From an uncultured Solirubrobacterales bacterium (GTDB lineage: Bacteria; Actinomycetota; Thermoleophilia; Solirubrobacterales; 70-9): a stretch of 64,000 bases of DNA. Shown here in pieces: positions 11,075 to 45,761 of the stretch. Under the pieces are notes generated by a model. It was not told the DNA's origin. It searched no databases and was given only the letters and a program-made list of their open reading frames with translations. The stretch lies in the NCBI GenBank assembly GCA_963817905.1, contig CAWFPS010000001.1:131647-195646 (forward strand), written 5' to 3'. The position numbers and the translations under genes were made by a program. How positions within the stretch are numbered: position 1 is the first letter of the stretch; each line of letters begins with the position of its first letter.

Positions 11075-11191
11075 TCGAGTACGGGCGGCAGCGGGCCGTC
11101 CCTGTCGAACCCAACGAGTAGGGGAGCGCCGGTCTTCCTCTTTGCGGCCTCCTGTCGCAAGCGGTTCCTGGCCCCAGACGTTTGTTCCGCG

Positions 11192-12190: not shown

Positions 12191-12208
12191 GGCAGCCGGG
12201 AGGCCGTC

Positions 12209-16288: not shown

Positions 16289-17271
16289 GCCGCAGGGGCC
16301 GGCAGGGGCTGACCGCGGTGGTCGCGCTCTGCGCAGTCGCGGTCGCCGCCTACCTGGTCCTCGACTCACCGAGCTCGAGTGGCGAGCCGCCCAGCGCGCA
16401 GCCAGTCGGCGCCGGCGGCCCAACCGAGATCGTCGGCTCATCGCTGATGGTGCGCGCGGTCAACAGAAGCGATCCGCTCGCCAACGGCCGCGCTTTCGTC
16501 ATCAAGGGCGGCCATCCGCGGCAGCTGGACGGCCCCGAGCTCGATTGCGAGCGGGTCTATTACGCGGCCGGCCGTGGCCTCTGCCTCGCCGCCGCCGACA
16601 CCGAAAGCGGTTACGAAGCGACGATCTTCGACTCTTCGCTGGGAACGCTGTTCCGGATTCCGCTGGCCGGCGTGCCATCGCGAGCGCGAGTCTCGAGCGA
16701 TGGCCGCTTCGGCGCGATGACCGTGTTCGTCAACGGCCACGCCTACCTCGAGACCGGCGGCTACTCGACTGAGACGACGATCGTCGATATGCGCACCGGC
16801 CAGCAGGTGGCAAACCTCGAGAGCTTCAAGGTGAGCAAGGGGGAAAGGCCCTTCGACGCGGTCGATTTCAACTTCTGGGGCGTCACCTTCGCCGCCGACT
16901 CGAACCGCTTCTACGCAACCCTGCGCACGAAGGGGCGCTACTACCTGGTCGAAGGCGACGTGGCGGCGCGGAGGATGCGGGTCATACGCAACCACGTCGA
17001 GTGCCCGGGGCTCTCGCCCGACGGGACCCGGATCGCCTACAAGAGCCGCATCGCCAACGAAAACCGGTGGCAGCTAAAGGTCCTCGACCTCGCCACGATG
17101 CAGGCCCACGACGTTGCCGAGCAGCGGCCGATCGACGACCAGGTGGAGTGGCTCGACGACGAAACCCTGGTCTACTCGAACAGCTTCGACGTCTACACGG
17201 TTCCCGCCAACGGCAGCGGCGCGCCCAGGCTCGTCGTGCGCGACGCGAGCTCGCCCGTGGCACTGCGCTAA
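16285..17271 (+). CDS. membrane-anchored PD40/TolB-like beta-propeller protein
   Basis: An N-terminal TM segment (LTAVVALCAVAVAAYLV) is followed by LSPDGTRIAYKS-type PD40 repeat motifs. There is an ATGA overlap with the GT4. Confidence 0.6.
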   Translation: MSRRGRQGLTAVVALCAVAVAAYLVLDSPSSSGEPPSAQPVGAGGPTEIVGSSLMVRAVNRSDPLANGRAFVIKGGHPRQLDGPELDCERVYYAAGRGLCLAAADTESGYEATIFDSSLGTLFRIPLAGVPSRARVSSDGRFGAMTVFVNGHAYLETGGYSTETTIVDMRTGQQVANLESFKVSKGERPFDAVDFNFWGVTFAADSNRFYATLRTKGRYYLVEGDVAARRMRVIRNHVECPGLSPDGTRIAYKSRIANENRWQLKVLDLATMQAHDVAEQRPIDDQVEWLDDETLVYSNSFDVYTVPANGSGAPRLVVRDASSPVALR

Positions 17272-17359: not shown

Positions 17360-20300
17360 GTGGCCAAGCTCTGCCAAGGCATAGTCGCGGTTGCCCTGCT
17401 CTTGCTGGGTGGCCAGGGGGTGTTCGCCGAGATCGCGACGGCCGGTCCCTGCGATGCGCCAGTCAACGAAATCGTCTGCGAGAACTCCAAGGTCGGCAAT
17501 CCCGCGACCGAATGGGACATCGAAGGGTCCGGCGACCCAAGCATCCAGGGCTTCACCACCGACATCAGCGTCAATCATGGCCAGGCGGTCCGCTTCAAGA
17601 TCAAGACCGACGCGACCGCCTACCACCTCGACATCTACCGGATGGGCTACTACGGTGGCGATGGCGCCCGCAAGGTGGCGTCCAGCATCCTGCCCTCGGC
17701 GAAACTTCCCCAGAGCCAGCCAGCCTGCAAAACCGAAGGGTCCACCGGTCTCTTCGACTGTGGCAACTGGTCTGAATCGGCCTCTTGGACGGTGCCGTCG
17801 ACAGCGGTCTCTGGCATCTACTTCGCCAAGCTGGTGCGGACCGACAAAAGCTCGGAAGGAAGCCACGATCATTTTCGTCGTGCGCAACGACGAAAGCCAC
17901 TCGAAGCCTGCTCTTCCAGACCGCCGACTCGACCTGGCAGGCATACAACCGCTACGGCGGCAACAGCCTCTACGCCGGCGGCCCGGGAACGAATCCCGAA
18001 CGCGCCTACAAGGTCAGCTACAACCGGCCACTGACGACCCGCGGGACGACCCCGGAAGACGCGCCCTTCTCGGCCGAATACCCGATGGTGCGCTGGCTGG
18101 AGCGAAACGGCTACGACGTCAGCTACTTCACCGGCGTAGACGATCGCCCGCCGCGGCGGCGAGATCCTCGCAGCACGAAGCTCTTCCTCTCGGTCGGCCA
18201 TGACGAGTACTGGTCGGCCGAGCAGCGCGAAAACGTCGAAGCGGCGCGCGAAGCGGGAGTCAATCTCGCCTTCTTCAGCGGCAACGAGATCTTCTGGAAG
18301 ACCCGCTGGGAAAACAGCATCGACGGGTCCAGCACCGGCTATCGCACGATCGTCTGTTACAAGGAGACCCACGCCGGCGCCAAGATCGACCCCGAAACCA
18401 AACGTCTGGACCGGAACCTGGCGCGACCCACGCTTCAGCCCGCCGGCTGACGGCGGCAAGCCCGAGAACTCGCTCAGCGGACAGGCCTTCATGGTCAACT
18501 CCGGCACCGGCTCGATCGAAGTGCCGGCGGCGGACGCGAAACTGCGCCTCTGGCGCAACACCGACGTCGCTTCGCTTAAAGCGGGCGAAACGGCAACTCT
18601 GGGCACCGAAACCCTCGGTTATGAGTGGGACGAAGACCTCGACAACGGCGCCCGGCCGCCGGGGTTGATCGATCTCTCCACGACCACGTTTGAAGTGCAG
18701 GATTATCTGATCGACTACGGCTCCAACTACCTGCCCGGGCCGGCAACCCACCACCTGACGCTCTACCGGGACGCCGAGCGGAGCGCTGGTCTTCGGCGCC
18801 GGCACGGTGCAGTGGTCATGGGGGCTGGACGAAGAACATGACCGCGGCGCCTATCCGCGGAATCCGGACTCCCGCATGCAGCAGGCGACGGTGAACCTGT
18901 TTGCCGATATGGGCGTGCAGCCGACGACTTTGCAGGAAGGCATCGTCGCGGCAACCCAGAGCACCGACACGACGCCGCCGGTGACGACGATCGCCAATCC
19001 GGCCGATGGCTCCGCGATCGAAAGCGGAGAGGAGATGACGATCAGCGGCACTGCCAGCGACGTCGGGGGGCAGGTGGCGGGGGTCGAAGTCTCGACCGAC
19101 GGTGGAGAATCCTGGCACCCGGCGAAGGGGAAGACCGCCTGGACCTACCCCTGGACACCGGGGGAAACGGGCAGCGCGACGATCAAGGCGCGCGCCGCCG
19201 ACGACAGCGCCAACCTGGAGAAACCGGGCGACCAGAACAGCATCGAAATCGTGCCCCGCTCGTGCCCCTGTTCGATCTGGGACAGCTCCTTCACCGGCGA
19301 ACCTGAAACGGACCCGAGCGAGATCGAAGTCGGGGTCAAGTTCCGCGCCGATACGCCCGGCTACATCACGGGACTGCGCTTCTACAAGACTCCGCGAAGG
19401 CACCGGAACCCATGTCGGCCACCTCTACACGGCAGGCGGGGCGCAGATGGCGGAAGCGACCTTCACGAAAGAAACCTCCTCCGGCTGGCAACAGGTGGAC
19501 CTCGCCAAACCGGTCGCGATCAACGCCAACACGACCTACGTTGCTTCCTACTACGCGCCCAATGGCCACTACGCGGCGCTGAGTAACTACTTCTCGGTGG
19601 TCGGGGCCGACAGCGCGCCGTTGCATGCGCTCGCCGACGGCGTTGACGGCCACAACGGCGTCTACCACTATGGAGTCGACGGTACCCTCTTCTCCGGCGC
19701 TGGACCGGAATCGTTCCAGGCGACCAACTACATGGTCGATGTTGTCTTCGAGTCCGAAGAACAGCCGCCGGTGATCTCCAATGTCCAGACGGTCGCTCAC
19801 AACGACGGCACGGCGATGGTCACCTGGGAGACTGATAAAGCCTCCGACTCCAAAGTGGATTACGGGACCAGTTCAAGTTCGCTCGGATCGAGTAAAAGCA
19901 GCTCGACCCAGGTCACCTCGCACAGCATTCAACTCAGCGGCCTCGCGGCAAACACGACCCACTACTTCCGCGTCACCTCGGCGGCGGGGGTCAACACTCG
20001 TACCGAACCCAGCCCGCTTCTCTCGCCGCTGAGCTTCATTACTCCACCCGCGGCCCCGACTCTGACGGGGACCGTTCCGGCGTCGCCGGCGAACAACAAC
20101 TCGCCAAAAGTGGTGGGCTCCGCGGCGAGCGGGACCACGGTGCGCCTCTACGGCACCAGTGGCTGCACCGGTTCACCGCTGGTGACCGCTAGTGCAGCCG
20201 AACTGGCAGCGGGCGTGTCCGCGACGGTCGCCGATGACACGAGCACCACCTTCCGAGCAACCGCCACCGGTTCGGCAAGCGAGGCCTCAGCTTGCTCGGC

Positions 20301-23300
20301 GGGGCTCACCTATGTTGAGGACTCGACAGCGCCGCAGACGCAGATCAGCTCGGGGCCGCCGACCCTAAGCACCTCGGCAAGTGCCGAACTCGAATTCTCC
20401 GGCACCGATTCTGGTGGCTCGGGCGTCGCCTCCTATGAGTGCCGGATCGACTCGACCGAACCCAGCGCCTGGGCATCGTGCACGTCGCCGAAGACCTACA
20501 ACTCACTCGCCGACGGCGCCCATAAATTCGAAGTCCGCTCGATCGACACGGCGGGCAACATCGACACCTCTCCGGCGGCCTCCAACTGGACCGTCGACAC
20601 AACCGCCCCGATCACGCAGATCGACTCCGGCCCGAGCGCGCTCAGCGCCTCAGGCACCGCCAATTTCGAATTCTCCGGCACCGACACTGGTGGCTCGGGC
20701 GTCGCCTCCTATGAGTGCCGGATCGACTCGACCGAACCCGGCGCCTGGGCATCCTGCACGTCGCCGAAGACCTACAACTCACTCGCCGACGGCGCCCATA
20801 AATTCGAAGTGCGGGCGATCGACACTGCCGGCAACGCCGACAGCAGCCCGGCGGCCTCCAACTGGACCGTCGACACCACGGCGCCTCAGGTGCAGATCAT
20901 TTCGGAGCCGGCCTCGATCTCGTCGTCAGCCGAAGCGACCTTCGCCTTCTCGGGTACAGACATCGGCGGCTCCGGCGTTGCCTCCTACCAGTGTCGACGT
21001 GACTCCGAAGCGCCCGGCGCCTGGGAGGTCTGCGGCTCTCCCGAGACCTATAACGCCCTCGCCGAGGGTCCCCACAAATTCGAAGTGCGGGCAGTCGACG
21101 GCGCCGGCAACGTCACCGCGCCACCTGCGACCTACGCCTGGACGATCGACACCGTTGCCCCTCAGACCCTGATCGACTCCAATCCGACGGCGGTAACGGC
21201 GTCCACCAGTGCCAACTTCAGCTTCTCGGGTTCGGACACCGGCGGCTCGGGCGTCGCCTCCTATGAGTGTCGGATCGACTCGACCGAACCGAGCGCCTGG
21301 GCATCGTGCACGTCGCCGAAGACCTACACCGGCCTCGCCGACGGCGCCCATAAATTCGAAGTGAGGGCGATCGACACTGCCGGCAACGCCGACAGCAGCC
21401 CGGCGACCTACGCCTGGACCGTCGACACCACCGTGCCCGAGACCCAGATCGACTCGACCCCGGTTTCCCTGAGCGCTTCGGCCAAAGCCGAATTCGGCTT
21501 TGGCGGCAATGACGGCTCGGGGTCCGGAGTCGCCTCGTTCCAGTGCCGCATCGACTCCACCGAAGCTGCCGACTGGAAAGCCTGCAGCTCGGTCAAGACC
21601 TACGAATCGCTCGCCGACGGCTCCCACAAATTCGAAGTCCGCTCGATCGATGTGGCCGGCAACACCGACCAGAGCCCGGCAACCTTCAGCTGGACGATCG
21701 ACACCGCCGCGCCCGACACCCAGATCGACTCCGGCCCCGCTGCGCTGGTCGCCTCGGCCAACGCCGAACTCAAATTCTCCGGCACCGACACTGGTGGCTC
21801 GGGCGTCGCCTCCTATGAGTGCCGGATCGACTCGACCGAACCCAGCGCCTGGACATCCTGCACGTCGCCGAAGACCTACAACTCACTCGCCGACGGCGCC
21901 CATAAATTCGAAGTCCGCTCGATCGACACGGCGGGCAACATCGACACCTCTCCGGCGGCCTCCAACTGGACCGTCGACACAACCGCCCCGATCACGCAGA
22001 TCGACTCCGGCCCGAGCGCGCTCAGCGCCTCAGGCACCGCCAATTTCGAATTCTCCGGCACCGACACTGGTGGCTCGGGCGTCGCCTCCTATGAGTGCCG
22101 GATCGACTCGACCGAACCCGGCGCCTGGACATCCTGCACGTCGCCGAAGACCTACAACTCACTCGCCGACGGCGCCCATAAATTCGAAGTGCGGGCGATC
22201 GACACTGCCGGCAATGCCGACCAGAGCCCGGCGACCTTCAGTTGGACCGTCGACACGACCGCCCCACAGACCCAGATCGACTCCAATCCGACGGCGGTAA
22301 CGGCGTCCACCAGTGCCAACTTCAGCTTCTCGGGTTCGGACACCGGCGGCTCGGGCGTCGCCTCCTATGAGTGCAGGGTCGACTCGACCGAACCCAGCGC
22401 CTGGACATCCTGCACGTCGCCGAAGACCTACAACTCCCTCGCCGACGGCGCCCATAAATTCGAAGTCCGCTCGATCGATGTGGCCGGCAATACCGACCAG
22501 GGCCCGGCGACCTTCAGCTGGACGATCGACACCACCGCGCCCGACGCCCAGATCGACTCCGGCCCCGCTGCACTGGTCGCCTCGGCCAACGCCGAACTCG
22601 AATTCTCCGGCACCGATTCTGGTGGCTCGGGCGTCGCCTCCTATGAGTGCCGGATCGACTCGACCGAACCCAGCGCCTGGGCATCGTGCACGTCGCCGAA
22701 GACCTACAACTCACTCGCCGACGGCGCCCATAAATTCGAAGTGAGGGCGATCGACACGGCGGGCAACATCGACACCTCTCCGGCGGCCTCCAACTGGACC
22801 GTCGACACAACCGCCCCGATCACGCAGATCGACTCCGGCCCGAGTGCGCTCAGCGCCTCAGGCACCGCCAAATTCGAATTCTCCGGCACCGACACTGGTG
22901 GCTCGGGCGTCGCCTCCTATGAGTGTCGGATCGACTCGACCGAACCGAGCGCCTGGGCATCGTGCACGTCGCCGAAGACCTACACCGGCCTCGCCGACGG
23001 CGCCCATATGTTCGAAGTGCGGGCGATCGACACTGCCGGCAATGCCGACAGCAGCTCGGCGGCCTCCAACTGGACTGTCGACACAACCGCGCCCGATACA
23101 CAGGTCGACGCTGGGCCGTCGGCTCTGAGCACCTCGGCCGACGCAGAATTCACCTTCTCCGGTGACGACGGTTCGGGCTCTGGTGTCGCCTCCTACCAGT
23201 GTCGCCGCGACTCCGAAGAAGCCAAAGATTGGGTTCCGTGCGGCCCGCCACAGACCTATCCCGCCCTCGCCGACGGCGCCCACAAATTCGAAGTCCGCGC

Positions 23301-26300
23301 CTCCGACCAGGCCGGCAACACCGATCCGAGTCCCGCCGTCTTCAACTGGACCATCGACGCGACCGCGCCGCAGACGCAGATCGATGCCCAGCCCGTGGTG
23401 CTCAGCGCGTCCCCAACCGCGCAGTTCACCTTCTCCGGTGACGACGGTTCGGGCTCTGGTGTCGCCTCCTATGAGTGCAGGGTCGACTCGACCGAGGCGG
23501 GCGGCTGGGCGCCGTGCGCCTCGCCCAAGACCTACACCTCACTCGCCGATGGCGCCCACAAATTCGAAGTGAGGGCAGTCGACGCCGCTGGCAACGTTGA
23601 CCAGAGCCCGGCGTCCTTCAGTTGGACAGTGGATGCCACCGCGCCCGATTCCCAAATCAGTTCCAACCCGCTGCTATTGAGCGCCTCCCCGAAAGCCGAA
23701 TTCAGCTTCACCGGCAGCGACGGATCCGGCTCGGGCGTGGCCTCCTACGAATGCCGCCTGGACTCGACTCAGTCCATCGACTGGAAAGCCTGCGCCTCGA
23801 CCAAGGAATACACGGGCCTCGTCGATGGCGCCCACAAATTCGAAGTGCGGGCAATCGATCAGTTCGGCAACGTTGACCAGAGTCCGGCGACCTTCAGCTG
23901 GACGATCGACACTACCGCCCCGCAGACCCAGATTGACTCCGGCCCGAGTGCGCTCAGCGCCTCAGGCACCCCCAAATTCGAATTCTCAGGCACCGATTCT
24001 GGTGGCTCGGGCGTCGCCTCCTATGAGTGCCGGATCGACTCGACCGAACCCAGCGCCTGGGCATCGTGCACGTCGCCGAAGACCTACAACTCACTCGCCG
24101 ACGGCGCCCATAAATTCGAAGTCCGCTCGATCGACACGGCGGGCAACACCGACACCTCTCCGGCGACCTCCAACTGGACCGTCGACACAACCGCGCCCGA
24201 GACCCAGATCGACTCGAACCCGGTTTCCCTGAGCGCTTCGGCCAAAGCCGAATTCGGCTTTGGCGGCAATGACGGCTCGGGGTCCGGAGTCGCCTCGTTC
24301 CAGTGCCGCATCGACTCGACCGAAGCTGCCGACTGGCAGCCGTGCGCCTCGGTCAAGACCTACGAATCGCTCGCCGACGGCTCCCACAAATTCGAAGTCC
24401 GCTCGATCGATGTGGCGGGCAACGCCGACCAGAGCCCGGCGACCTTCAGCTGGACGATCGACACCACCGTGCCCGACACCCAGATCGACTCCGGCCCCGC
24501 TGCACTGGTCGCCTCGGCCAGCGCCGAACTCAAATTCTCCGGCACCGATTCTGGTGGCTCGGGCGTCGCCTCCTATGAGTGCCGGATCGACTCCACCGAA
24601 GCTGCCGACTGGCAGTCGTGCACCTCGGCCAAGGAATACAACTCACTCGCCGACGGCGCCCATAAATTCGAAGTCCGCTCGATCGACACGGCGGGCAACA
24701 CCGACACCTCTCCGGCGACCTCCAACTGGACCGTCGACACAACCGCGCCCGAGACCCAGATCGACTCGAACCCGGTTTCCCTGAGCGCTTCGGCCAAAGC
24801 CGAATTCGGCTTTGGCGGCAATGACGGCTCGGGGTCCGGAGTCGCCTCGTTCCAGTGCCGCATCGACTCGACCGAAGCTGCCGACTGGCAGCCGTGCGCC
24901 TCGGTCAAGACCTACGAATCGCTCGCCGACGGCTCCCACAAATTCGAAGTCCGCTCGATCGATGTGGCGGGCAACACCGACCAGAGCCCGGCGACCTTCA
25001 GCTGGACGATCGACACCACCGTGCCCGACACCCAGATCGACTCCGGCCCCGCTGCACTGGTCGCCTCGGCCAGCGCCGAACTCAAATTCTCCGGCACCGA
25101 TTCTGGTGGCTCGGGCGTCGCCTCCTATGAGTGCCGGATCGACTCCACCGAAGTTGCCGACTGGCAGTCGTGCACCTCGGCCAAGGAATACAACTCACTC
25201 GCCGACGGCGCCCATAAATTCGAAGTGCGGGCGATCGACACTGCCGGCAACGCCGACACCTCTCCGGCGACCTCCAACTGGACCGTCGACACAACCGCGC
25301 CCGAGACCCAGATCGACTCGAACCCGGTTTCCCTGAGCGCTTCGGCCAAAGCCGAATTCGGCTTTGGCGGCAATGACGGCTCGGGGTCCGGAGTCGCCTC
25401 GTTCCAGTGCCGCATCGACTCGACCGAAGCTGCCGACTGGCAGCCGTGCGCCTCGGTCAAGACCTACGAATCGCTCGCCGACGGCTCCCACAAATTCGAA
25501 GTCCGCTCGATCGATGTGGCGGGCAACACCGACCAGAGCCCGGCGACCTTCAGCTGGACGATCGACACCACCGTGCCCGACACCCAGATCGACTCCGGCC
25601 CCGCTGCACTGGTCGCCTCGGCCAGCGCCGAACTCAAATTCTCCGGCACCGATTCTGGTGGCTCGGGCGTCGCCTCCTATGAGTGCCGGATCGACTCCAC
25701 CGAAGTTGCCGACTGGCAGTCGTGCACCTCGGCCAAGGAATACAACTCACTCGCCGACGGCGCCCATAAATTCGAAGTCCGCTCGATCGACACGGCGGGC
25801 AACACCGACACCTCTCCGGCGACCTCCAACTGGACCGTCGACACCACCGCCCCGATCACGCAGATCGACTCCGGCCCGAGCGCGCTCAGCGCCTCAGGCA
25901 CCGCCAAATTCGAATTCTCCGGCACCGATTCTGGTGGCTCGGGCGTCGCCTCCTATGAGTGCCGGATCGACTCGACCGAACCCAGCGCCTGGGCATCGTG
26001 CACGTCGCCGAAGACCTACAACTCACTCGCCGACGGCGCCCATAAATTCGAAGTGCGGGCGATCGACACTGCCGGCAACACCGACAGCAGCCCGGCGGCC
26101 TCCAACTGGACCGTCGACACAACCGCTCCCGAGACCCAGATCGACTCGAACCCGGTTTCCCTGAGCGCTTCGGCCAACGCCGAACTCGAATTCTCAGGCA
26201 CCGATTCTGGTGGCTCGGGCGTCGCCTCCTATGAGTGCCGGATCGACTCGACCGAACCCAGCGCCTGGGCATCGTGCACGTCGCCGAAGACCTACAACTC

Positions 26301-29300
26301 ACTCGCCGACGGCGCCCATAAATTCGAAGTCCGCTCGATCGACACGGCGGGCAACACCGACACCTCTCCGGCGACCTCCAACTGGACCGTCGACACCACC
26401 GCCCCGATCACGCAGATCGACTCCGGCCCGAGCGCGCTCAGCGCCTCAGGCACCGCCAAATTCGAATTCTCCGGCACCGATTCTGGTGGCTCGGGCGTCG
26501 CCTCCTATGAGTGCCGGATCGACTCGACCGAACCCAGCGCCTGGGCATCGTGCACGTCGCCGAAGACCTACAACTCCCTCGCCGACGGCGCCCATAAATT
26601 CGAAGTCCGCTCGATCGACACGGCGGGCAACACCGACACCTCTCCGGCGACCTCCAACTGGACCGTCGACACAACCGCGCCCGAGACCCAGATCGACTCG
26701 AACCCGGTTTCCCTGAGCGCTTCGGCCAAAGCCGAATTCGGCTTTGGCGGCAATGACGGCTCGGGGTCCGGAGTCGCCTCGTTCCAGTGCCGCATCGACT
26801 CGACCGAAGCTGCCGACTGGCAGCCGTGCGCCTCGGTCAAGACCTACGAATCGCTCGCCGACGGCGCCCATAAATTCGAAGTCCGCTCGATCGACACGGC
26901 GGGCAACATCGACACCTCTCCGGCGGCCTCCAACTGGACCGTCGACACAACCGCCCCGATCACGCAGATCGACTCCGGCCCGAGCGCGCTCAGCGCCTCA
27001 GGCACCGCCAATTTCGAATTCTCCGGCACCGACACTGGTGGCTCGGGCGTCGCCTCCTATGAGTGCCGGATCGACTCCACCGAAGCTGCCGACTGGCAGT
27101 CGTGCACCTCGGCCAAGGAATACAACTCCCTCGCCGACGGCGCCCATAAATTCGAAGTCCGCTCGATCGACACGGCGGGCAACACCGACACCTCTCCGGC
27201 GACCTCCAACTGGACCGTCGACACCACCGCCCCGATCACGCAGATCGACTCCGGCCCGAGCGCGCTCAGCGCCTCAGGCACCGCCAAATTCGAATTCTCC
27301 GGCACCGATTCTGGTGGCTCGGGCGTCGCCTCCTATGAGTGCCGGATCGACTCGACCGAACCCAGCGCCTGGGCATCGTGCACGTCGCCGAAGACCTACA
27401 ACTCCCTCGCCGACGGCGCCCATAAATTCGAAGTCCGCTCGATCGACACGGCGGGCAACACCGACACCTCTCCGGCGACCTCCAACTGGACCGTCGACAC
27501 AACCGCGCCCGAGACCCAGATCGACTCGAACCCGGTTTCCCTGAGCGCTTCGGCCAAAGCCGAATTCGGCTTTGGCGGCAATGACGGCTCGGGGTCCGGA
27601 GTCGCCTCGTTCCAGTGCCGCATCGACTCGACCGAAGCTGCCGACTGGCAGTCGTGCACCTCGGCCAAGGAATACAACTCCCTCGCCGACGGCGCCCATA
27701 AATTCGAAGTCCGCTCGATCGACACGGCGGGCAACACCGACACCTCTCCGGCGACCTCCAACTGGACCGTCGACACCACCGCCCCGATCACGCAGATCGA
27801 CTCCGGCCCGAGCGCGCTCAGCGCCTCAGGCACCGCCAAATTCGAATTCTCCGGCACCGATTCTGGTGGCTCGGGCGTCGCCTCCTATGAGTGCCGGATC
27901 GACTCCACCGAAGCTGCCGACTGGCAGTCGTGCACCTCGGCCAAGGAATACAACTCCCTCGCCGACGGCGCCCATAAATTCGAAGTCCGCTCGATCGACA
28001 CGGCGGGCAACACCGACACCTCTCCGGCGACCTCCAACTGGACCGTCGACACCACCGCCCCGATCACGCAGATCGACTCCGGCCCGAGCGCGCTCAGCGC
28101 CTCAGGCACCGCCAAATTCGAATTCTCCGGCACCGATTCTGGTGGCTCGGGCGTCGCCTCCTATGAGTGCCGGATCGACTCCACCGAAGCTGCCGACTGG
28201 CAGCCGTGCGCCTCGGTCAAGACCTACGAATCGCTCGCCGACGGCTCCCACAAATTCGAAGTCCGCTCGATCGATGTGGCGGGCAACACCGACCAGAGCC
28301 CGGCGACCTTCAGCTGGACGATCGACACCACCGTGCCCGACACCCAGATCGACTCCGGCCCCGCTGCACTGGTCGCCTCGGCCAGCGCCGAACTCAAATT
28401 CTCCGGCACCGATTCTGGTGGCTCGGGCGTCGCCTCCTATGAGTGCCGGATCGACTCCACCGAAGCTGCCGACTGGCAGCCGTGCGCCTCGGTCAAGACC
28501 TACGAATCGCTCGCCGACGGCTCCCACAAATTCGAAGTCCGCTCGATCGACACGGCGGGCAACACCGACACCTCTCCGGCGACCTCCAACTGGACCGTCG
28601 ACACCACCGTGCCCGACACCCAGATCGACTCGAACCCGGTTTCCCTGAGCGCTTCGGCCAAAGCCGAATTCGGCTTTGGCGGCAATGACGGCTCGGGGTC
28701 CGGAGTCGCCTCGTTCCAGTGCCGCATCGACTCGACCGAAGCTGCCGACTGGCAGCCGTGCGCCTCGGTCAAGACCTACGAATCGCTCGCCGACGGCTCC
28801 CACAAATTCGAAGTCCGCTCGATCGATGTGGCGGGCAACACCGACCAGAGCCCGGCGACCTTCAGCTGGACGATCGACACGGCCCCGCCTGCGGTAGCGA
28901 TCGATTCCCTGTCCAAGACTCTCATCGGCGCCGGCCAGTCGAGCGAAGTGCATTGGCACGCCACGGAGAACGGCGCCTTCGAGCTGCGCGTGGGGGGGAG
29001 CGACTGCACCAGCGGGACCGTCGTGGCCTCCGGCGCTTACGGCTCCGCACCGGGTCAACACATCTCCACCGTCGCCGCCACGGATCTCTCAGAAGGCGCG
29101 AACGCATTGCGGCTCTGTGTCACCGATGCGGCGGGGAGTCGCGGCGCCACTACTGCGAGCTTGACCCGAGACACCACCGCCCCCGAGACCCAGATCGACG
29201 CCCACCCGGCGGCGCTCTCGATCTCCTCCTCGGCCCAGTTCGCCTTCTCCGGCACCGACCTCGGTGGCTCGGGCGTCGCCTCCTATGAATGCCGCCGCGA

Positions 29301-32300
29301 CTCCACCGAAGCGAGCGCCTGGTCCTCCTGCGCCTCCCCGCAGTCCTACGCCTCGCTCACAGACGGTGCCCACACCTTCCAGGTCCGCGCCACCGACGTC
29401 GCCGGCAACGCCGACGGCTCACCGGCCGCCTTCAATTGGACGGTGGACACGACGCCGCCCACGGCGACGATCGACTCCGGCCCCTCCGGGCTGACCAACG
29501 ATGCGACCCCGAGCTTCGAGTTCCACTCCTCCGAGGCAGGCTCTGCCTTCGAGTGCTCGATCGACACCGGCACTCCGGCCTACGGCCCCTGCTCGGGCCC
29601 GGGCTCCCACACCCCCGCCGGCGCCCTCGCCGACGGCCCCCACACCTTCCGCGTGCGCGCCACCGATGCCGCCGGCAACCTGGGCACGGCGGCGACCCGG
29701 GCCTTCACCGTCGACACCACCGCCCCGCCGGCGCCCGAGCTGACCTCCACGGCACCGCCCTCGCCGGCGAACAACAACTCGCCCAAGGTGATCGGCTCGG
29801 CCCCGGCGGGCTCCACCGTGCGCCTTTACTCCGGCGCGGACTGCTCGGGCACCCCGCTTGCCACCGTCTCGGCCGCCCAGCTGGCCGCCGGGATCACCGT
29901 CTCGGTCCCCGATGACTCGAGCACCTCCTTCCACGCCACCGCGACCACCGCCGCCGAAAACACCTCCGGCTGTTCGGCCCCGATCGCCTACGTCGAGGAC
30001 TCGAGCGCGCCGCAGACCCAGATCGACGGGCACCCCGGTGCACTCAGCGCCTCGGCCACCGCCCAGTTCGAATTCTCCGCCAGCGACGGCTCCGGCTCGG
30101 GCGTCGCCTCCTACCAGTGCCGGATCGACTCCACCCAGGGAGTGGACTGGAACGCCTGCACCTCGCCCAAGGCCTACACCTCGCTCGGCGAGGGAGCCCA
30201 CAAGCTCGAAGTGCGGGCAATCGACGCCGCCGGCAACACCGACGCCACGCCGGCCGACTTCGAGTGGAGTATCGACACGGCAGCCCCGCAGACCCAGATC
30301 GATACCCACCCGGCCACCCTCGCCACCAGCGCCGCGGCCCAGTTCACCTTCTCGGGCACCGACGCCGGCGGCTCGGGGGTCGCCTCCTACCAGTGCCGCC
30401 GCGACTCCAGCGAAGCGAGCGCCTGGGTCTCCTGCACCTCGCCGCAGTCCTACGCCACCCTCGCCGACGGTTCCCACAGCTTCGAAGTGCGGGCGATCGA
30501 CCAGGCCGGCAACGCCGACGCCTCACCGGCCGCCTTCTCCTGGAGCATCGACACCACCGCGCCGCAGACCCAGGTCGACACCCACCCGAGCTCACCGAGC
30601 AACTCCGCCGCGGCCCAGTTCGCCTTCTCGGGCACCGACACGGGTGGCTCGGGCGTCGCCTCCTATGAATGCCGCCGCGACTCGAGCCAGGCAGCCGACT
30701 GGGAGGCCTGCAGCTCACCGAAGAGCTACGCCTCGCTCGGCGAGGGAGCCCACAGCTTCGAAGTGCGTGCGGTGGACGTTGCCGGCAACGCCGACGGCTC
30801 ACCGGCCGCCTTCAACTGGACGGTGGACACGACGCCGCCGAATACCCAGGTCGACTCTCACCCGACATCGCTCACCACCGCCACCTCGGCCCAGTTCGCC
30901 TTCTCCGGCACCGACACTGGCGGATCCGGGGTCGTCGCCTACGAATGTCGCCGTGACTCCAGCGAACAGAGCGCCTGGGCAGCCTGTGCTTCTCCCAAGA
31001 ACTACAGCGCCCTCACCGACGGCGGCCACAAATTCGAGGTTCGCTCGGTGGACGCCGCCGGCAACGCCGACCAGAGCCCCGCCAGCTTCGACTGGAGCAT
31101 CGACACCACCGCCCCCGAGACCCAGATCGACGCCCACCCGGCGGCGCTCTCGATCTCCTCCTCGGCCCAGTTCGCCTTCTCCGGCACCGACCTCGGTGGC
31201 TCGGGCGTCGCCTCCTATGAATGCCGCCGCGACTCCACCGAAGCGAGCGCCTGGTCCTCCTGCGCCTCCCCGCAGTCCTACGCCTCGCTCACAGACGGTG
31301 CCCACACCTTCCAGGTCCGCGCCACCGACGTCGCCGGCAACGCCGACGGCTCACCGGCCGCCTTCAATTGGACGGTGGACACGACGCCGCCCACGGCGAC
31401 GATCGACTCCGGCCCCTCCGGGCTGACCAACGATGCGACCCCGAGCTTCGAGTTCCACTCCTCCGAGGCAGGCTCTGCCTTCGAGTGCTCGATCGACACC
31501 GGCACTCCGGCCTACGGCCCCTGCTCGGGCCCGGGCTCCCACACCCCCGCCGGCGCCCTCGCCGACGGCCCCCACACCTTCCGCGTGCGCGCCACCGATG
31601 CCGCCGGCAACCTGGGCACGGCGGCGACCCGGGCCTTCACCGTCGACACCACCGCCCCGCCGGCGCCCGAGCTGACCTCCACGGCACCGCCCTCGCCGGC
31701 GAACAACAACTCGCCCAAGGTGATCGGCTCGGCCCCGGCGGGCTCCACCGTGCGCCTTTACTCCGGCGCGGACTGCTCGGGCACCCCGCTTGCCACCGTC
31801 TCGGCCGCCCAGCTGGCCGCCGGGATCACCGTCTCGGTCCCCGATGACTCGAGCACCTCCTTCCACGCCACCGCGACCACCGCCGCCGAAAACACCTCCG
31901 GCTGTTCGGCCCCGATCGCCTACGTCGAGGACTCGAGCGCGCCGCAGACCCAGATCGACGGGCACCCGGCCAATCCGGTCAGCTCGGCGATCGCGACGTT
32001 CACCTTCTCGGGCACCGACACCAGTGGCTCCGGCATCGCCGGCTATGAATGCCGCCTCGACTCGAGCCAGGCAGGCGATTGGTCGCTGTGTACCTCACCG
32101 AAGAGCTACGCCTCGCTCGGCGAGGGAGCCCACAGCTTCGAAGTGCGTGCGGTGGACGTTGCCGGCAACGCCGACGGCTCACCGGCCGCCTTCAACTGGA
32201 CGGTGGACACGACGCCGCCGAATACCCAGGTCGACTCTCACCCGACATCGCTCACCACCGCCACCTCGGCCCAGTTCGCCTTCTCCGGCACCGACACTGG

Positions 32301-35300
32301 CGGATCCGGGGTCGTCGCCTACGAATGTCGCCGTGACTCCAGCGAACAGAGCGCCTGGGCAGCCTGTGCTTCTCCCAAGAACTACAGCGCCCTCACCGAC
32401 GGCGGCCACAAATTCGAGGTTCGCTCGGTGGACGCCGCCGGCAACGCCGACCAGAGCCCCGCCAGCTTCGACTGGAGCATCGACACCACCGCCCCCGAGA
32501 CCCAGATCGACGCCCACCCGGCGGCGCTCTCGATCTCCTCCTCGGCCCAGTTCGCCTTCTCCGGCACCGACCTCGGTGGCTCGGGCGTCGCCTCCTATGA
32601 ATGCCGCCGCGACTCCACCGAAGCGAGCGCCTGGTCCTCCTGCGCCTCCCCGCAGTCCTACGCCTCGCTCACAGACGGTGCCCACACCTTCCAGGTCCGC
32701 GCCACCGACGTCGCCGGCAACGCCGACGGCTCACCGGCCGCCTTCAATTGGACGGTGGACACGACGCCGCCCACGGCGACGATCGACTCCGGCCCCTCCG
32801 GGCTGACCAACGATGCGACCCCGAGCTTCGAGTTCCACTCCTCCGAGGCAGGCTCTGCCTTCGAGTGCTCGATCGACACCGGCACTCCGGCCTACGGCCC
32901 CTGCTCGGGCCCGGGCTCCCACACCCCCGCCGGCGCCCTCGCCGACGGCCCCCACACCTTCCGCGTGCGCGCCACCGATGCCGCCGGCAACCTGGGCACG
33001 GCGGCGACCCGGGCCTTCACCGTCGACACCACCGCCCCGCCGGCGCCCGAGCTGACCTCCACGGCACCGCCCTCGCCGGCGAACAACAACTCGCCCAAGG
33101 TGATCGGCTCGGCCCCGGCGGGCTCCACCGTGCGCCTTTACTCCGGCGCGGACTGCTCGGGCACCCCGCTTGCCACCGTCTCGGCCGCCCAGCTGGCCGC
33201 CGGGATCACCGTCTCGGTCCCCGATGACTCGAGCACCTCCTTCCACGCCACCGCGACCACCGCCGCCGAAAACACCTCCGGCTGTTCGGCCCCGATCGCC
33301 TACGTCGAGGACTCGAGCGCGCCGCAGACCCAGATCGACGGGCACCCCGGTGCACTCAGCGCCTCGGCCACCGCCCAGTTCGAATTCTCCGCCAGCGACG
33401 GCTCCGGCTCGGGCGTCGCCTCCTACCAGTGCCGGATCGACTCCACCCAGGGAGTGGACTGGAACGCCTGCACCTCGCCCAAGGCCTACACCTCGCTCGG
33501 CGAGGGAGCCCACAAGCTCGAAGTGCGGGCAATCGACGCCGCCGGCAACACCGACGCCACGCCGGCCGACTTCGAGTGGAGTATCGACACGGCAGCCCCG
33601 CAGACCCAGATCGATACCCACCCGGCCACCCTCGCCACCAGCGCCGCGGCCCAGTTCACCTTCTCGGGCACCGACGCCGGCGGCTCGGGGGTCGCCTCCT
33701 ACCAGTGCCGCCGCGACTCCAGCGAAGCGAGCGCCTGGGTCTCCTGCACCTCGCCGCAGTCCTACGCCACCCTCGCCGACGGTTCCCACAGCTTCGAAGT
33801 GCGGGCGATCGACCAGGCCGGCAACGCCGACGCCTCACCGGCCGCCTTCTCCTGGAGCATCGACACCACCGCGCCGCAGACCCAGGTCGACACCCACCCG
33901 AGCTCACCGAGCAACTCCGCCGCGGCCCAGTTCGCCTTCTCGGGCACCGACACGGGTGGCTCGGGCGTCGCCTCCTATGAATGCCGCCGCGACTCGAGCC
34001 AGGCAGCCGACTGGGAGGCCTGCAGCTCACCGAAGAGCTACGCCTCGCTCGGCGAGGGAGCCCACAGCTTCGAAGTGCGTGCGGTGGACGTTGCCGGCAA
34101 CGCCGACGGCTCACCGGCCGCCTTCAACTGGACGGTGGACACGACGCCGCCCACGGCTACGATCGACTCCGGCCCCTCCGGGCTGACCAACGATGCGACC
34201 CCGAGCTTCGAATTCCACTCCTCCGAGGCAGGCTCTGCCTTCGAGTGCTCGATCGACACCGGCACTCCGGCCTACGGCCCCTGCTCGGGCCCGGGCTCCC
34301 ACACCCCCGCCGGCGCCCTCGCCGACGGCCCCCACACCTTCCGCGTGCGCGCCACCGATGCCGCCGGCAACCTGGGCACGGCGGCAAGTCGTTCCTTCAC
34401 CCTGGATGCATCGGTGCCCTCGCCCCCGCAGCTGAGCGCCACCGTCCCGTCTACGCCGTCAAACGACAATTCGCCAAAGGTCGTCGGCAGTGCTCCTGAC
34501 GGGACCACAGTCCGCCTCTACGCCAGCGCCGATTGTTCAGGAGGAGCGATCGCCGTCACCGGCGCCGCTGGCCTCGCGGCGGGTATTGCGGTCACCGTTG
34601 CCGACAATTCGACGACCCGATTCAGCGCCACAGCCACATCGCCGGCCGACATCACATCGACCTGCTCGGCGGCACTCACCTACGTCGAGGACTCAAGCGC
34701 CCCGCAGACCCAGATCGATTCAGGGCCGAGCAATCCGAGCGCGAGCGCGAGCGCCGACTTCGCCTTCTCCGGAGTCGACAGCGGTGGAACCGGAATCGCC
34801 TCTTATCAGTGTCGCCTCGATTCGACCCAGGATGCGGATTGGACACCCTGCAGCTCGCCTCAGAGCTACGCCGGCCTCGCTGACGGAACCCACGGCTTCC
34901 AGGTGCGGGCGCTCGATTGGGCCGGCAATGTCGACGGCAGCCCTGCCGGCTACGACTGGAACATCGACACCAGCGCGCCGGACAGCAAATCGCCCGACAC
35001 GCTGGCCCTGCGCGCTCCAGTGCGCCTCTTGCGGATCAGCTATGACCGGCGCCGGGGAACCGCGCTCCTCATCTTCGACGTTCCCGGACCCGGCACGCTC
35101 TCGGCGAGCGTTCCGACCGCGTCGCCGCGCAAGGGTTTGAGCAGCGCATCCCGACGTAACGCGATCCGCCGACAGCGCTCACACCAGATCGAACCGAAGA
35201 GCGTGCGCGCTGTGAGGGCCGGCCGGGTAATGCTGCCGATCCGGCTAAGCCGCGCCGGTCGCAAGCTGCTGCGTGAAAACGGCAGGCTCAGGGTCAGAAT

Positions 35301-35415
35301 GCGGATCAGCTTCAAGGCCAAGGGCGAGGCTACCGTCAGCCGAATGCTGGCGATCACGCTGAAGCGCCGCGACCTCCACCGGCTGAAGCGCAACCGTCAC
35401 CACAGCAGGAGCTAG
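17360..35415 (+). CDS. giant repetitive surface protein (about 6,000 aa when reconstructed); head region carries five +1 frame breaks
   Basis: The colinear protein is spread over ORFs 17360, 17391, 17785, 18200, 18807 and 19102. It begins with the signal peptide MAKLCQGIVAVALLLLGGQGVFA. The head matches the N,N-dimethylformamidase-beta-like family (DISVNHGQAVRFKIKT, YHLDIYRMGYYGG, LLFQTADSTWQAYNRYGGNSLY, FLSVGHDEYWS, AFFSGNEIFWKTRWE, WTGTWRDPRF, GALVFGAGTVQWSWGLD). Then come a DUF4082-like region (GYITGLRFYK..GTGTHVGHLY), an FN3-like domain, 5 NNNSPKV-type Ig-like domains and about 48 two-Cys 92-aa domains. Confidence 0.85.
20335..28895 (+). repeat. 31 tandem 276-bp coding repeats (92-aa two-Cys Ig-like domain)
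   Basis: The unit consensus is QIDSGP.ALSAS..A.FEFSGTDSGGSGVASYECRIDSTE..W.SCTSPKTYNSLADGAHKFEVR.ID.AGN.D.SPA...WTVDTTAP.T. Shadow ORFs recur at offsets of 276 and 552 bp (for example 24260, 24812, 25364). Confidence 0.95.
29170..34151 (+). repeat. nested kb-scale duplications inside the giant gene
   Basis: 29170-30839 equals 32482-34151 (offset 3312). 29170-30035 equals 31102-31967 (offset 1932). 30716-31967 equals 32096-33347 (offset 1380). I judged identity from identical shadow-ORF translations in several frames (for example 29419..30477 = 32731..33789, and 29289..29915 = 31221..31847 = 32601..33227) and from junctions read by eye. Confidence 0.85.
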
Positions 35416-35449: not shown

Positions 35450-37747
35450 CTAGGGCTCGGGGATGGTGGCGAGATTGTCGTCCCAGACGTTGCCCGACCA
35501 AGTGACGGAGCCGGAGAAGTAGGCACCGATGCCGTAGCTGCCACCGTAGGGGTAGAGACCGCTGGAGTCTGAGCCGCCTTTGCAGAGCCAGTGACCATTT
35601 TCTTTGGTTTCGGCTGAGCCTAGGCAGCGGGCGATGTGATTGCCGGTGATCGTGGTCTGGGCACCCGAGGGATTGGTGCTGTTGGCCTGTGGGTAGAACA
35701 CGTAGCCGCCGCCGGCCAGCAGGCTATTTGTAACCGTGAAATTGTTGCCGCCACCGCAGATCGTATCCCCGAACACCGTCGCCGTCTGGTTGACCGCGTT
35801 GATCAGGGTCGAGTGGTTCACGTTCACCGTTTCGGAACAGATATAGATGTTCTCCGCGTGGGCGCCCGAGTAGATCGAGGAGACGACCATGTAGGAGTCC
35901 TTCACGGTGGCCCCGCCCTGGACGCACTCGTTGCAATTGTAGAAGTAGTCACGTTCGAGCGTGACGCCGCTGAATCCACGAACAGCGGCCTCTATCGTGT
36001 TCGATCCGCTGCCTTTGCCTCCCGCGGTTACGTCTTTGATTACGTTGCCGGAGCCGTTATTCGTGATCGCCTGCGTACCGCTGCCGCTCGCGGTCGAGAC
36101 GATCTTCACGTTTTCGATCGTCACGTTGTTGGCGTTGATCGTGATCTTGCCGCTGACTTCCTTGTCCTTGACGATCGTACCGTTGGTCGAGACGGTGATA
36201 GAGCCGGACGGAGTGAGGCTCCCCGATGCGCCGGTATTTGTTTCGTCCGGATAGCCGCATGTGTGCGGCGAGGCGAAGCAGTGGCTGCCGGAGGAGGGGG
36301 CCGATTCGACCGTCCATGTCGCCGTCGCCGGCGTCGCGTCGGTGTTGCCCGCCGCGTCAGTTGCCCGTACGGAGAAGGTGTGAGACCCAACCGCCAGGCC
36401 CGAGTAAGCCTTGGGAGACGTACAGGCGCCCCAGGAGGCACTGTCGAGCTTGCAGGCAAAGGTAGAGCCCGTCTCACTGGCCGAGAAGGAGAAGCTCGCC
36501 GCGGTGCTGGTCGTGTTAGCAGCGGGCTGCGAGGAGATCGTCGTCTGCGGCGGAGTGGTGTCGGGTGGGACCGGCAGTTCTTCGACCGTCCATGTCGCCG
36601 TCGCCGGCGTCGCGTCGGTGTTGCCCGCCGCGTCAGTTGCCCGTACGGAGAAGGTATGAGACCCAACTGCCAGGCCCGAGTAAGCCTTGGGAGACGTACA
36701 GGCGCCCCAGGAGGCACTGTCGAGCTTGCAGGCAAAGGTAGAGCCCGTCTCACTGGCCGAGAAGGAGAAGCTCGCCGCGGTGCTGGTCGTGTTAGCAGCG
36801 GGCTGCGAGGAGATCGTCGTCTGCGGCGGAGTGGTGTCGGGTGGGACCGGCAGTTCTTCGACCGTCCATGTCGCCGTCGCCGGCGTCGCGTCGGTGTTGC
36901 CCGCCGCGTCAGTTGCCCGTACGGAGAAGGTGTGAGACCCAACCGCCAGGCCCGAGTAAGCCTTGGGAGACGTACAGGCGCCCCAGGAGGCACTGTCGAG
37001 CTTGCAGGCAAAGGTAGAGCCCGTCTCGCTGGCCGAGAAGGAGAAGCTCGCCGCGGTGCTGGTCGTGTTAGCAGCGGGCTGCGAGGAGATCGTCGTCTGC
37101 GGCGGAGCGGTGTCGGCCGGTTCTTCAGTTTCTTCAGGCGGTTCCGGATCTTCGGTGCCCGTTCGGACCGGAAAGGATTGGCGATTGGAATCGGTTTCGC
37201 CGTCGGCATCGGTAACCGTCAGCTTTACGTACTTAGTGTCGGCCACCTGGAACACAAAGGGGAGCTGGCAACCTGTGTGGGTCTCCCAGACGGTACCCCC
37301 GCTCAGGTCTTCGAATGACCAGGTGCAATGCAGCGGCGCGTCGCCCTGAGAGGCGGTCCCGTCGAGCGTCAGCTGGGCGCCCGTCAGCGCATCGGCGGGG
37401 GTCGTCCAGATAGCGTGCGCCAAGGTATTCGGCGGTATTTCTTCTCCCGGAGCTACTTCCGGAGGGGTCGGTTCGGGTGGTATGGGGCTCGGGTCTTCAC
37501 GATGGCCGTGCTGGTGGCGGTGGGTGTGCAGCGCCACTCCCGCGGACACGCCGACCTTCGTAGAGTTGCGGCGAGCCGCCTTTTCGGTTGGGGAGAGAGC
37601 CGATCGGTGGCCAAAGAGCCCGCTGGACTGTGCGAGTGCAACGCCGGTTCCCAGAAGGGCCAGCGCGGTGCAGGCAACCAGTACTGCAATCGTACGGAGG
37701 CGGCGCCCCTCGCGGGGCCTGTCAGACGAAAGCTTTTTCCCGATCAT
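35450..37747 (-). CDS. secreted PKD + 3x two-Cys Ig-like + beta-helix protein
   Basis: The product has a signal peptide (IAVLVACTALALLGTGVALA) and a His-rich stretch (HTHRHQHGH). A PKD-like region follows (LTLDGTASQGD...YVKLTVTDADGETDS). Then come three 92-aa repeats (FACKLDSASWGACTSPKAYSGLAVGSHTFSVRATDAAGNTDATPA) and a C-terminal CGYPDETNTG beta-helix domain paralogous to 296-1267. Confidence 0.9.
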   Translation of the reverse strand: MIGKKLSSDRPREGRRLRTIAVLVACTALALLGTGVALAQSSGLFGHRSALSPTEKAARRNSTKVGVSAGVALHTHRHQHGHREDPSPIPPEPTPPEVAPGEEIPPNTLAHAIWTTPADALTGAQLTLDGTASQGDAPLHCTWSFEDLSGGTVWETHTGCQLPFVFQVADTKYVKLTVTDADGETDSNRQSFPVRTGTEDPEPPEETEEPADTAPPQTTISSQPAANTTSTAASFSFSASETGSTFACKLDSASWGACTSPKAYSGLAVGSHTFSVRATDAAGNTDATPATATWTVEELPVPPDTTPPQTTISSQPAANTTSTAASFSFSASETGSTFACKLDSASWGACTSPKAYSGLAVGSHTFSVRATDAAGNTDATPATATWTVEELPVPPDTTPPQTTISSQPAANTTSTAASFSFSASETGSTFACKLDSASWGACTSPKAYSGLAVGSHTFSVRATDAAGNTDATPATATWTVESAPSSGSHCFASPHTCGYPDETNTGASGSLTPSGSITVSTNGTIVKDKEVSGKITINANNVTIENVKIVSTASGSGTQAITNNGSGNVIKDVTAGGKGSGSNTIEAAVRGFSGVTLERDYFYNCNECVQGGATVKDSYMVVSSIYSGAHAENIYICSETVNVNHSTLINAVNQTATVFGDTICGGGNNFTVTNSLLAGGGYVFYPQANSTNPSGAQTTITGNHIARCLGSAETKENGHWLCKGGSDSSGLYPYGGSYGIGAYFSGSVTWSGNVWDDNLATIPEP
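36300..37125 (-). repeat. 3 tandem 276-bp coding repeats
   Basis: Shadow ORFs 36411, 36687 and 36963 are identical and spaced 276 bp apart. This is the same period as the giant-gene array. Confidence 0.9.
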
Positions 37748-37892
37748 GCTCGAAATGTCGGATGGAGGAATGTGACCCGGAAGATCCCCGCGTTACCTCA
37801 GACGGATATATGAGTCACCTGGCGCATTGCCGGAAGTGAGCGTCCGTAGTCCGCCGCATTCGACCGGAAATTCGGATAGACGCGGCTGAGTG

Positions 37893-39772: not shown

Positions 39773-39826
39773 TGCTTGCGCGCGGCGCCGCGGAAGTCGC
39801 CCGGAGCGTCGGGCGTTTGTCTGTAT

Positions 39827-40357: not shown

Positions 40358-40359
40358 CA

Positions 40360-41289: not shown

Positions 41290-41340
41290 CCGACGCTGGG
41301 AACGGCGGCCGCGCCAGATCGATACCGACCTGAAGCCGCC

Positions 41341-45711: not shown

Positions 45712-45761
45712 CCGATCGCTCCCGTGTCTACCGACGACCGCCCGCTCCGTCAACGACGGGA

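Follow-up and report, generated by a model that had tools for sequence, protein, structure and literature searches.

The closest described systems to the head of the protein discussed here are the large subunit of the Paracoccus N,N-dimethylformamidase (6LVB) and the N-acetyl-(R)-beta-phenylalanine acylase (8I5A/8HUY), both named for small N-acyl amide substrates; the PF20254 region is common to all three. In the dimethylformamidase, an Fe(III) is held by Y399, Y440 and E521, with H519 nearby (PMC7686228). The subject here is a giant gene in a stretch of 64,000 nucleotides (the window, with a G+C content of about 70%, to which all positions below refer) of contig CAWFPS010000001.1, from assembly GCA_963817905.1 of an uncultured Solirubrobacterales bacterium. 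This gene joins an enzyme-like head of the PF20254 kind to a very long stalk of immunoglobulin (Ig)-like domains and a basic tail.

The reading favored here, with a probability of roughly 0.55, is that the gene encodes a long surface fibre displaying a metal-dependent amidohydrolase which would act on the glycan made by the surrounding gene cluster, that the single-base insertions found in the head are errors, and that the gene is intact. The anatomy which an earlier note had drawn from the letters of the window is real; the gene is not intact as written. It carries eight +1 frameshifts, all of them in the head, so that as written it is either mis-assembled or dead. The families of head and stalk are described ones, the design recurs in relatives, and there is a lead to the function of the head in such proteins. 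The earlier note had allowed that head and stalk might both prove to belong to well-characterised families of known function. That is not what was found: the families have been described, with no tested function for proteins of this kind, and in a literature search DUF4082 came up in only two papers, a single time in each and never in a title or abstract.

The giant gene and its reading frame

There is no 18-kb open reading frame (ORF) in the window sequence as given. The largest ORF in the region, 19102-35415 on the plus strand, has 5,437 codons (16.3 kb), and all other ORFs overlapping the giant-gene region have 522 codons or fewer. The head, at 17360-19396, lies in pieces. Between 17360 and about 19400, plus-strand coding signal persists but switches among all three frames (a frame plot of third-position G+C, GC3, gave noisy strand calls and served as a guide only), and tblastn with P0010, the closest database homologue (73% identity), finds colinear pieces in alternating frames over the head. 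When eight single bases are deleted, one continuous ORF results, for a protein with a predicted mass of 617 kDa and a pI of 4.35, and the corrected reading equals the relatives exactly at several junctions, as in TLYRAPSGALVFGAG. The single gene of about 18 kb and 6,000 amino acids (AA) proposed earlier therefore stands as a reconstruction, of 6,015 codons, and fails for the sequence as given, with its eight +1 frameshifts. Uncorrected, the sequence has no product that both starts with a signal peptide and reaches the stalk. A head-less protein starting from 19102 was considered and rejected; it would be without a signal peptide, with its first 98 codons out of frame. Promoter and terminator scans at both ends of the gene detected nothing above chance. 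The features of the gene and its surroundings are collected in Table 1, in which L and P numbers, as in the text, designate loci and proteins of relatives.

Table 1. Features of the giant gene and the locus around it (window positions)
Feature	Position	Strand	Remarks
Upstream glycan-synthesis genes	4509..17271	mixed	Synteny with L001, L006, L014, L080, L082
Whole gene	17360..35415	+	Eight insertions removed: 6,015 codons plus stop
GTG start and signal-peptide-like N-terminus, MAKLCQGIVAVALLLLGGQGVFA followed by E	17360..17428	+	Hydropathy; conserved in intact L003
DMFA2_C (dimethylformamidase-like) domain	17627..18839	+	Pfam PF20254
Y194; Y203; H279 and E281	17944-17946; 17971-17973; 18199-18207	+	In the DMFA2_C domain
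Eight window-specific insertions	near 17866, 17906, 18143, 18166, 18181, 18395, 18771, 19394	+	Placed within a few bases
Big_7 Ig-like domain	18978..19190	+	Pfam PF17957, 42.4 bits
DUF4082 beta-sandwich	19305..19737	+	Pfam PF13313; includes the insertion near 19394
FN3-like domain (Pur_ac_phosph_N)	19795..19986	+	Pfam PF16656, 32.3 bits (cut-off 30)
First NNNSPKV two-Cys Ig-like domain (N)	20026..20325	+	No Pfam or NCBIfam match
Block 1: 31 units, each 276 nt (92 AA)	20326..28881	+	Cys pair at unit positions 39 and 52
Insert I: single-copy 98-AA two-Cys domain	28882..29175	+	Between the blocks
Block 2: U V N U5 V N U3 V N U3 V N U	29176..34971	+	13 U, 4 V, 4 N
C-terminal tail: short linker and basic beta-sandwich-like domain	34972..35412	+	No known family
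Stop codon of the giant gene	35413-35415	+	
Downstream part of the same conserved locus	35450..45753	mixed	Same order in L082

The head and its putative active site

The N-terminus looks like the signal peptide claimed for it: by inspection and hydropathy scan only, it has a hydrophobic core at residues 4-28 and a VFA/E site, and it is the sole strongly hydrophobic 19-residue window besides one that lies within a beta-sandwich domain. The frame-corrected head matches PF20254 over profile positions 2-372 of 374 (346.9 bits against a cut-off of 27) and PF13313 over positions 9-143 of 143 (148.2 bits against 28.4), which bears out its earlier assignment to proteins with a dimethylformamidase-beta-like domain plus DUF4082; the FN3-like domain that was said to follow is also recognised.

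An AlphaFold2 model of the 802-residue head (predicted local distance difference test, pLDDT, 80, and about 90 in the DUF4082 region; predicted template modelling score, pTM, 0.78) was compared with solved structures using Foldseek. It resembles the N-acetyl-(R)-beta-phenylalanine acylase (8i5a; probability 1.00, E = 3.4e-13) and the Paracoccus dimethylformamidase (6lvd/6lvb/6lve; E = 1.6e-11 to 5e-10). In a profile alignment, the GHDEYW of the head (H279, E281) corresponds to the SHPEYQ of the dimethylformamidase (H519, E521), a register fixed by the entry for the E521A mutant, which reads HPAY there; this His/Glu equivalence is solid. The WQAY of the head (Y194) aligns with a stretch ending in Y399 and its NSLY (Y203) with Y440, both in weak, low-scoring stretches of the alignment; these two are putative equivalents of the iron-ligand tyrosines. 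All four residues are invariant in 40 homologues. The earlier note knew of no function for this head; there are leads to one, in the match of its fold to those of two amide hydrolases and in the retention of positions that align with the iron site.

The alternative that survives best, unlikely as we consider it, is that the head of the protein binds a ligand without catalysis and the whole serves as a giant adhesin or matrix scaffold, with DMFA2_C and DUF4082 forming a carbohydrate- or surface-binding tip. The stalk does resemble repeat adhesins and the RbmA biofilm scaffold in Foldseek searches; the family of its unit is named for Leptospira OmpL47, which ligand-binding studies treat as surface-exposed; parts of the head model match carbohydrate-binding beta-sandwiches (Foldseek rank 10); and we know of no activity for any DMFA2_C + DUF4082 protein. 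Against a head that only binds, the metal-ligand-aligned positions and the nearby His are invariant in the 40 diverse homologues, along with many other polar residues, and a pattern of this sort is expected of an active site more than of a surface that binds.

Linkage to glycan genes

The earlier note put the gene directly after a polysaccharide locus. The glycan genes are there, but the gene is embedded within their locus, with genes on both sides, and the linkage extends across phyla. Toward the giant gene, the upstream order is GT2, a hexapeptide acyltransferase, a Wzx-type flippase, GT1, a Wzy_C-like gene (minus strand), GT2, an epimerase/dehydratase with DegT, Bac_transf, GT4 and a 328-AA membrane/beta-propeller-like protein. 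Downstream follow a 765-AA secreted protein, DegT and a LuxR-type regulator (all on the minus strand), GT2 (plus strand) and a 1,470-AA Kelch/galactose-oxidase-like protein (minus strand). This gene order is conserved in L001, L006, L007, L014, L080 and L082.

More widely, 40 of 82 head-family loci, in four phyla, have a Bac_transf, DegT or epimerase homologue within 10 kb (E <= 1e-20), and homologues of at least two of these are found within the same distance in 25 of the 82; the glycan-linked loci include ones from Actinoplanes, Acidobacteriota, Burkholderiales and Chloroflexota. With a few copies of such genes per genome, linkage by chance should be seen in a few percent of loci, which is a rough estimate and not a computed control. 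The proposal that the target of the head is an N-acylated amino-sugar glycan is founded on this linkage.

The single-base insertions

The insertions were located by tblastn with P0010 and by DNA alignments against L002, L003 and L082, in all three of which they are absent; they are particular to this window. All eight events are +1, with no deletions and no nonsense codons, and every one of the family-invariant residues, which number more than 100 as judged from 40 homologues, is kept in the broken head. All eight fall within 2.03 of the 18.06 kb of the gene, and none in the 16-kb array. A further lesion is seen in the GT4 gene (14764-16288, plus strand), which is split into two ORFs by an insertion at about 15757 that creates a TGA stop; GT4 is one ORF in L001, L002, L006, L007, L014, L080 and L082, and its lesion, which lies 1.6 kb before the head, is of the kind found there. 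The Wzx, GT1, Wzy-like, GT2, epimerase, DegT and 328-AA genes match relatives in a single frame, and several downstream genes have near-full-length Pfam matches. L082 and L001 have single-base breaks of their own in the head, at other sites, and their contigs contain further broken housekeeping-type genes, for example DegT and Bac_transf; the closest relatives were assembled with Flye from Nanopore reads only and received one round of Medaka polishing. When metagenome contigs were scanned for the exact pattern around the 18395 insertion, with the base allowed to be present or absent, no same-species contig turned up. A common motif at the insertion sites was sought; CGA(A/T) occurs at several of them, though not in a consistent pattern.

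A locally poor consensus is favored by the restriction to +1 events, the lack of nonsense codons, the retention of the invariant residues and a clustering that follows position and not gene. The eight insertions are thus most likely consensus errors of a long-read metagenome assembly, to judge from these patterns, and the gene is probably intact in the organism. A true pseudogene, in which real frameshifts killed the head and the stalk ORF is an undecayed remnant that is no longer exported, seems quite improbable. The eight frameshifts do break the head as written, the ORF at 19102-35415 opens with 98 out-of-frame codons and without a signal peptide, and the closest relatives, L001 and L082, also have broken heads. 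However, random decay would be expected to strike the 16-kb array about 8 times more often than the head, and the array is unbroken (chance about 2.5e-8); the lesions are of one type only and have spared every invariant residue; the neighboring GT4 gene carries the same type of lesion, which speaks for position rather than gene; and L001 and L082 are broken elsewhere in the head, in contigs with other broken genes. This locus illustrates how a gene of 6,000 codons can be lost from view through local consensus errors in an assembly of long metagenomic reads.

The stalk

About 55-56 beta-sandwich domains lie behind the head, including the FN3-like domain. With U for the 92-AA unit, V for an 88-AA variant, N for the NNNSPKV domain, I for the 98-AA insert and T for the tail, the order after the FN3-like domain is N U31 I U V N U5 V N U3 V N U3 V N U T. 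The pattern [YF][EQ]C[RS].D has 48 matches, 31 of them at exact 92-AA spacing and then 17, of which four belong to the 88-AA SAFECSIDTG variant, and there are five N[ND]NSPKV domains; the earlier counts of about 48 two-Cys units, in blocks of 31 and 17, and of five NNNSPKV domains were accordingly right. Arrays with a 276-nt period were detected by Tandem Repeats Finder at 20368-28880 and 30006-34132. The insert between the blocks is indeed a non-repeat domain, of 98 AA, but its bounds are those of Table 1 and not the 28896-29169 first given; it is kept at the same place in P0243, P0244 and P0246, and its match to Big_13 is weak (E = 0.07).

The two-Cys unit matches described families: a three-unit segment scores 101.6 bits against NF047446 ("OmpL47-type beta-barrel domain", cut-off 40), and a 370-AA multi-unit segment scores 70 bits against Big_13 (PF19077, cut-off 27), mostly in the C-terminal third of that model; Ca_tandemer (NCBIfam NF033510) is borderline on the stalk, at 51.8 bits against a cut-off of 50. 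No solved structure for the unit was detectable by sequence. Structure prediction, which the earlier note had suggested as a way of looking for a disulfide, was carried out for the last unit and gives a seven-strand beta-sandwich (pLDDT about 93) with Cys39 and Cys52 on adjacent strands. In Foldseek, the model of the last unit plus the tail matches tandem FN3/Ig proteins, among them the RbmA biofilm scaffold and the MpIBP adhesin repeats (4p99, 5irb). Among 2,438 unit instances from 150 representative proteins, 2,233 have both cysteines, 142 neither and 63 only one, and this both-or-neither pattern supports a disulfide in the unit; from it and from the model, we infer that each unit would be pinned by a Cys39-Cys52 disulfide.

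Two unit subtypes alternate in block 1. Units 15, 17 and 19 are identical in DNA, as are units 23 and 26, while most units differ by 5-35% and the differences reach up to 37%. Exact repeats measure 1,670, 1,254 and 866 bp in block 2 and 526 and 522 bp in block 1, so that the exact copy number depends on the assembly. The repeat pattern fits recent unequal recombination. That the assembly inflates the size, the true gene having the same parts with substantially fewer repeats and its near-identical units having been over-expanded, is also quite unlikely: the long exact repeats of block 2, the two sets of identical units and the local errors in the same stretch of assembly would permit it, yet most units differ enough to be placed, L082, a syntenic locus from an independent assembly, counts 44 U/V units and 6 N domains and shares the higher-order U3-V-N module, and L007, L011 and the short-read contig L014 exceed 3,800-4,100 codons before their data end.

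The tail and export features

The tail and the stalk differ sharply in charge: the last 140 residues have 37 K+R against 7 D+E (net charge about +30), the stalk 218 K+R against 591 D+E (net charge about -370). The tail model (pLDDT about 78) has strands and two helices. No Pfam or NCBIfam family was found for the tail, in the case of Pfam even at E <= 1. The homologues found for it (P0121, P0122, the C-terminus of L006, P0243, P0244 and P0246) belong to close relatives only, and a word search with the tail gave only two close homologues, P0121 and P0122. An RTX or type I-secreted adhesin was considered and rejected, as there is no GGxGxD in the 6,016 residues scanned and the C-terminus is a basic beta-sandwich; a sortase substrate was rejected as well, there being no LPXTG-like motif and no C-terminal hydrophobic or transmembrane segment.

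Relatives

Relatives were sought in a genome scan with one genome per species, in a library of representative proteins searched with the unit, and, with the head, the tail and four units as queries, in a protein database whose listed matches were at most some 1.75 times as long as the query (1,565 AA where the query had 895 AA, 643 where it had 368); the giant relatives came to light in the first two. The head has more than 7,000 matches in the protein database at E <= 1e-20. In the genome scan, the closest heads, at 64-72% identity, come from Solirubrobacterales and Conexibacteraceae metagenome-assembled genomes (MAGs).

The architecture is not unique to the window: in Solirubrobacterales relatives, unbroken ORFs that join head and stalk range from 2,465 to more than 4,138 codons, and the gene in L082 comes to about 5,770. 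Individual intact ORFs measure 2,697 codons in L003, 2,726 in L004, 2,465 in L005, 2,868 in L006 and 3,822 in L013; those of L007 and L011 exceed 4,130 codons and that of L014 3,840 before running off the fetched DNA. The hidden Markov model (HMM) of the unit finds 20-28 copies in several relative loci, and in the representative library the 92-AA two-Cys unit makes up many proteins whose length is 4,000-6,200 residues. In the search for the same head-plus-stalk design in relatives, also proposed in the earlier note, the best representative match is P0243 (5,271 AA), on the 292-kb contig L082, where the gene order is the same on both sides. With a 436-AA head fragment just upstream, P0243 makes up the gene of about 5,770 codons, broken by one single-base insertion at a different site. 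P0243, P0244 and P0246 have the grammar N-Un-I-U-V-N-(U3-V-N)m-[U]-T, with n of 12-26 and m of 0-5. The recurrence of grammar and size indicates that design and scale are real, recurrent and not unique to the window.

Proposed function

In the proposed mechanism, a protein of about 6,015 residues and about 617 kDa, strongly acidic overall, would be exported by the Sec route and be extracellular. Its stalk would act as a semi-rigid spacer of about 0.2 micrometre, a length that follows from about 4 nm per Ig-like domain in tandem Ig arrays. The basic tail might bind the fibre non-covalently to anionic polymers of the envelope or matrix, and the head would be a metal-dependent amidohydrolase acting on the N-acylated amino-sugar glycan of the surrounding cluster, for example by de-N-acylation.

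Several points weigh against this reading. The insertions are clustered in a way unlike random errors, with a chance of about 2.5e-8 under uniform placement. The likeness of the fold to the solved enzymes is moderate, with template modelling (TM) scores of 0.35-0.43 and identities of 13-17%, and the tyrosine alignments are weak, at -0.5 bits for one and at the edge of a 19-bit stretch for the other. Only the gene neighborhood points to the substrate suggested for the head, and only charge to the end that would be anchored.

A wider and rather doubtful proposal is that DMFA2_C + DUF4082 proteins form an extracellular, iron-dependent class of de-N-acylases, present in several phyla and so far unrecognised, and that in Solirubrobacterales the enzyme is held about 0.2 micrometre out on a fast-evolving, disulfide-pinned stalk with a new basic anchor. 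If that were true, the maturation of amino-sugar exopolysaccharides or envelope glycans would be the task of these de-N-acylases, which would correspond in function to enzymes such as PgaB or IcaB, but with a 2-Tyr-1-carboxylate center of the dimethylformamidase type.

Giant Ig-repeat surface proteins are common and close relatives are public, so size alone is unremarkable here; the value of the gene lies in a functional lead on a very large uncharacterised head family, with its more than 7,000 relatives. The kept positions that align with the iron center, together with the proximity of glycan genes in about half of the examined loci, give a concrete and testable function for DUF4082/DMFA2_C proteins and would suggest that the solvent-degrading dimethylformamidase may have natural kin among glycan-modifying enzymes. 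The stalk is a clean case of modular length evolution, with a conserved grammar and a variable copy number.

Other genes of the locus

The gene directly upstream of the giant gene (16285-17271, plus strand) encodes the 328-AA protein, which has a hydrophobic segment near its N-terminus and matches beta-propeller families (PD40/TolB) weakly. It stands directly upstream of the head gene in the syntenic Solirubrobacterales-type loci L001, L002, L006, L007, L011, L014, L080 and L082 as well, and homologues occur near head genes in L019, L021, L038, L062 and L071; it may be a partner of the giant protein. On the other side, the convergent gene at 35450-37747 (minus strand) encodes the 765-AA protein, which has a signal-anchor-like N-terminus, three identical two-Cys units, a segment that looks PKD-like by eye and a Gly/Asn/Thr-rich C-terminal part of beta-helix-like appearance, the latter two without a family match; a counterpart lies at the same position in L082. 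The 1,470-AA protein (41341-45753, minus strand), also present in L082, has two Big_7 domains, Kelch/glyoxal-oxidase/galactose-oxidase-like domains and a Big_13; by its domains, it is a candidate for a third secreted enzyme on Ig domains in this conserved locus.

The epimerase/dehydratase and DegT form one 713-codon ORF (12209-14350, plus strand) here and in L001, whereas in L006, L014 and L080 their frames differ and in L082 they are called as two genes; the joint ORF could be a natural fusion or the result of another indel near 13100-13210. A 1,589-codon ORF at 8879-13648 (minus strand) is real in part: the Wzy_C-like gene takes up about 8879-11095, and the remainder was rejected as a gene, being an antisense frame over plus-strand genes and an artefact of high G+C. 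Just past the glycan locus, at 45963-50137, a gene for an AAA_14/DUF4143 ATPase lies between two Fic-domain genes, and L082 has a Fic gene at a position matching one in the window.

Comparison with known systems

The H-x-E-Y motif of the dimethylformamidase and the acylase is common to the head, and the two putatively equivalent Tyr positions are conserved. The dimethylformamidase also includes a small partner subunit of 15 kDa, in an alpha2beta2 arrangement, and hydrolyses dimethylformamide. Those enzymes have chains of 772-776 residues with no fused stalk, whereas the head here is predicted to be secreted and continues into Big_7, DUF4082 and then about 5,200 residues of stalk. The nearest proteins in sequence are the DMFA2_C + DUF4082 proteins of soil bacteria (Actinoplanes, Acidobacteriota, Burkholderiales and others), whose heads are orthologous (51-73% identity over 800 residues) and which often share the linkage to amino-sugar glycan genes. 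Their stop-to-stop ORFs, however, have a median of about 1,800 codons (81 loci), with other C-terminal Ig-type domains. Among the fetched head-family loci, long arrays of two-Cys units are found almost only in Solirubrobacterales-type MAGs, and the basic tail sets the close relatives of the window gene apart from the broader DMFA2_C + DUF4082 proteins found.

The 92-AA unit scores above the cut-offs for Leptospira OmpL47/NF047446 and for Big_13. OmpL47 itself, in the NCBIfam model, is a small multi-domain surface protein of 336 profile positions, while here there are 48 repeats behind an enzyme-like head. The Ca2+-stabilised giant adhesins, such as MpIBP of Marinomonas, likewise have tandem Ig-like arrays of about 100-AA domains that hold a functional end off the cell. 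Compared with these Gram-negative adhesins, the window protein is without RTX nonapeptides or a type I secretion C-terminus; it has a putative Sec-type signal and an enzyme-like head at its N-terminus in place of a retention module, a Cys pair in its units, and an actinobacterial host lineage.

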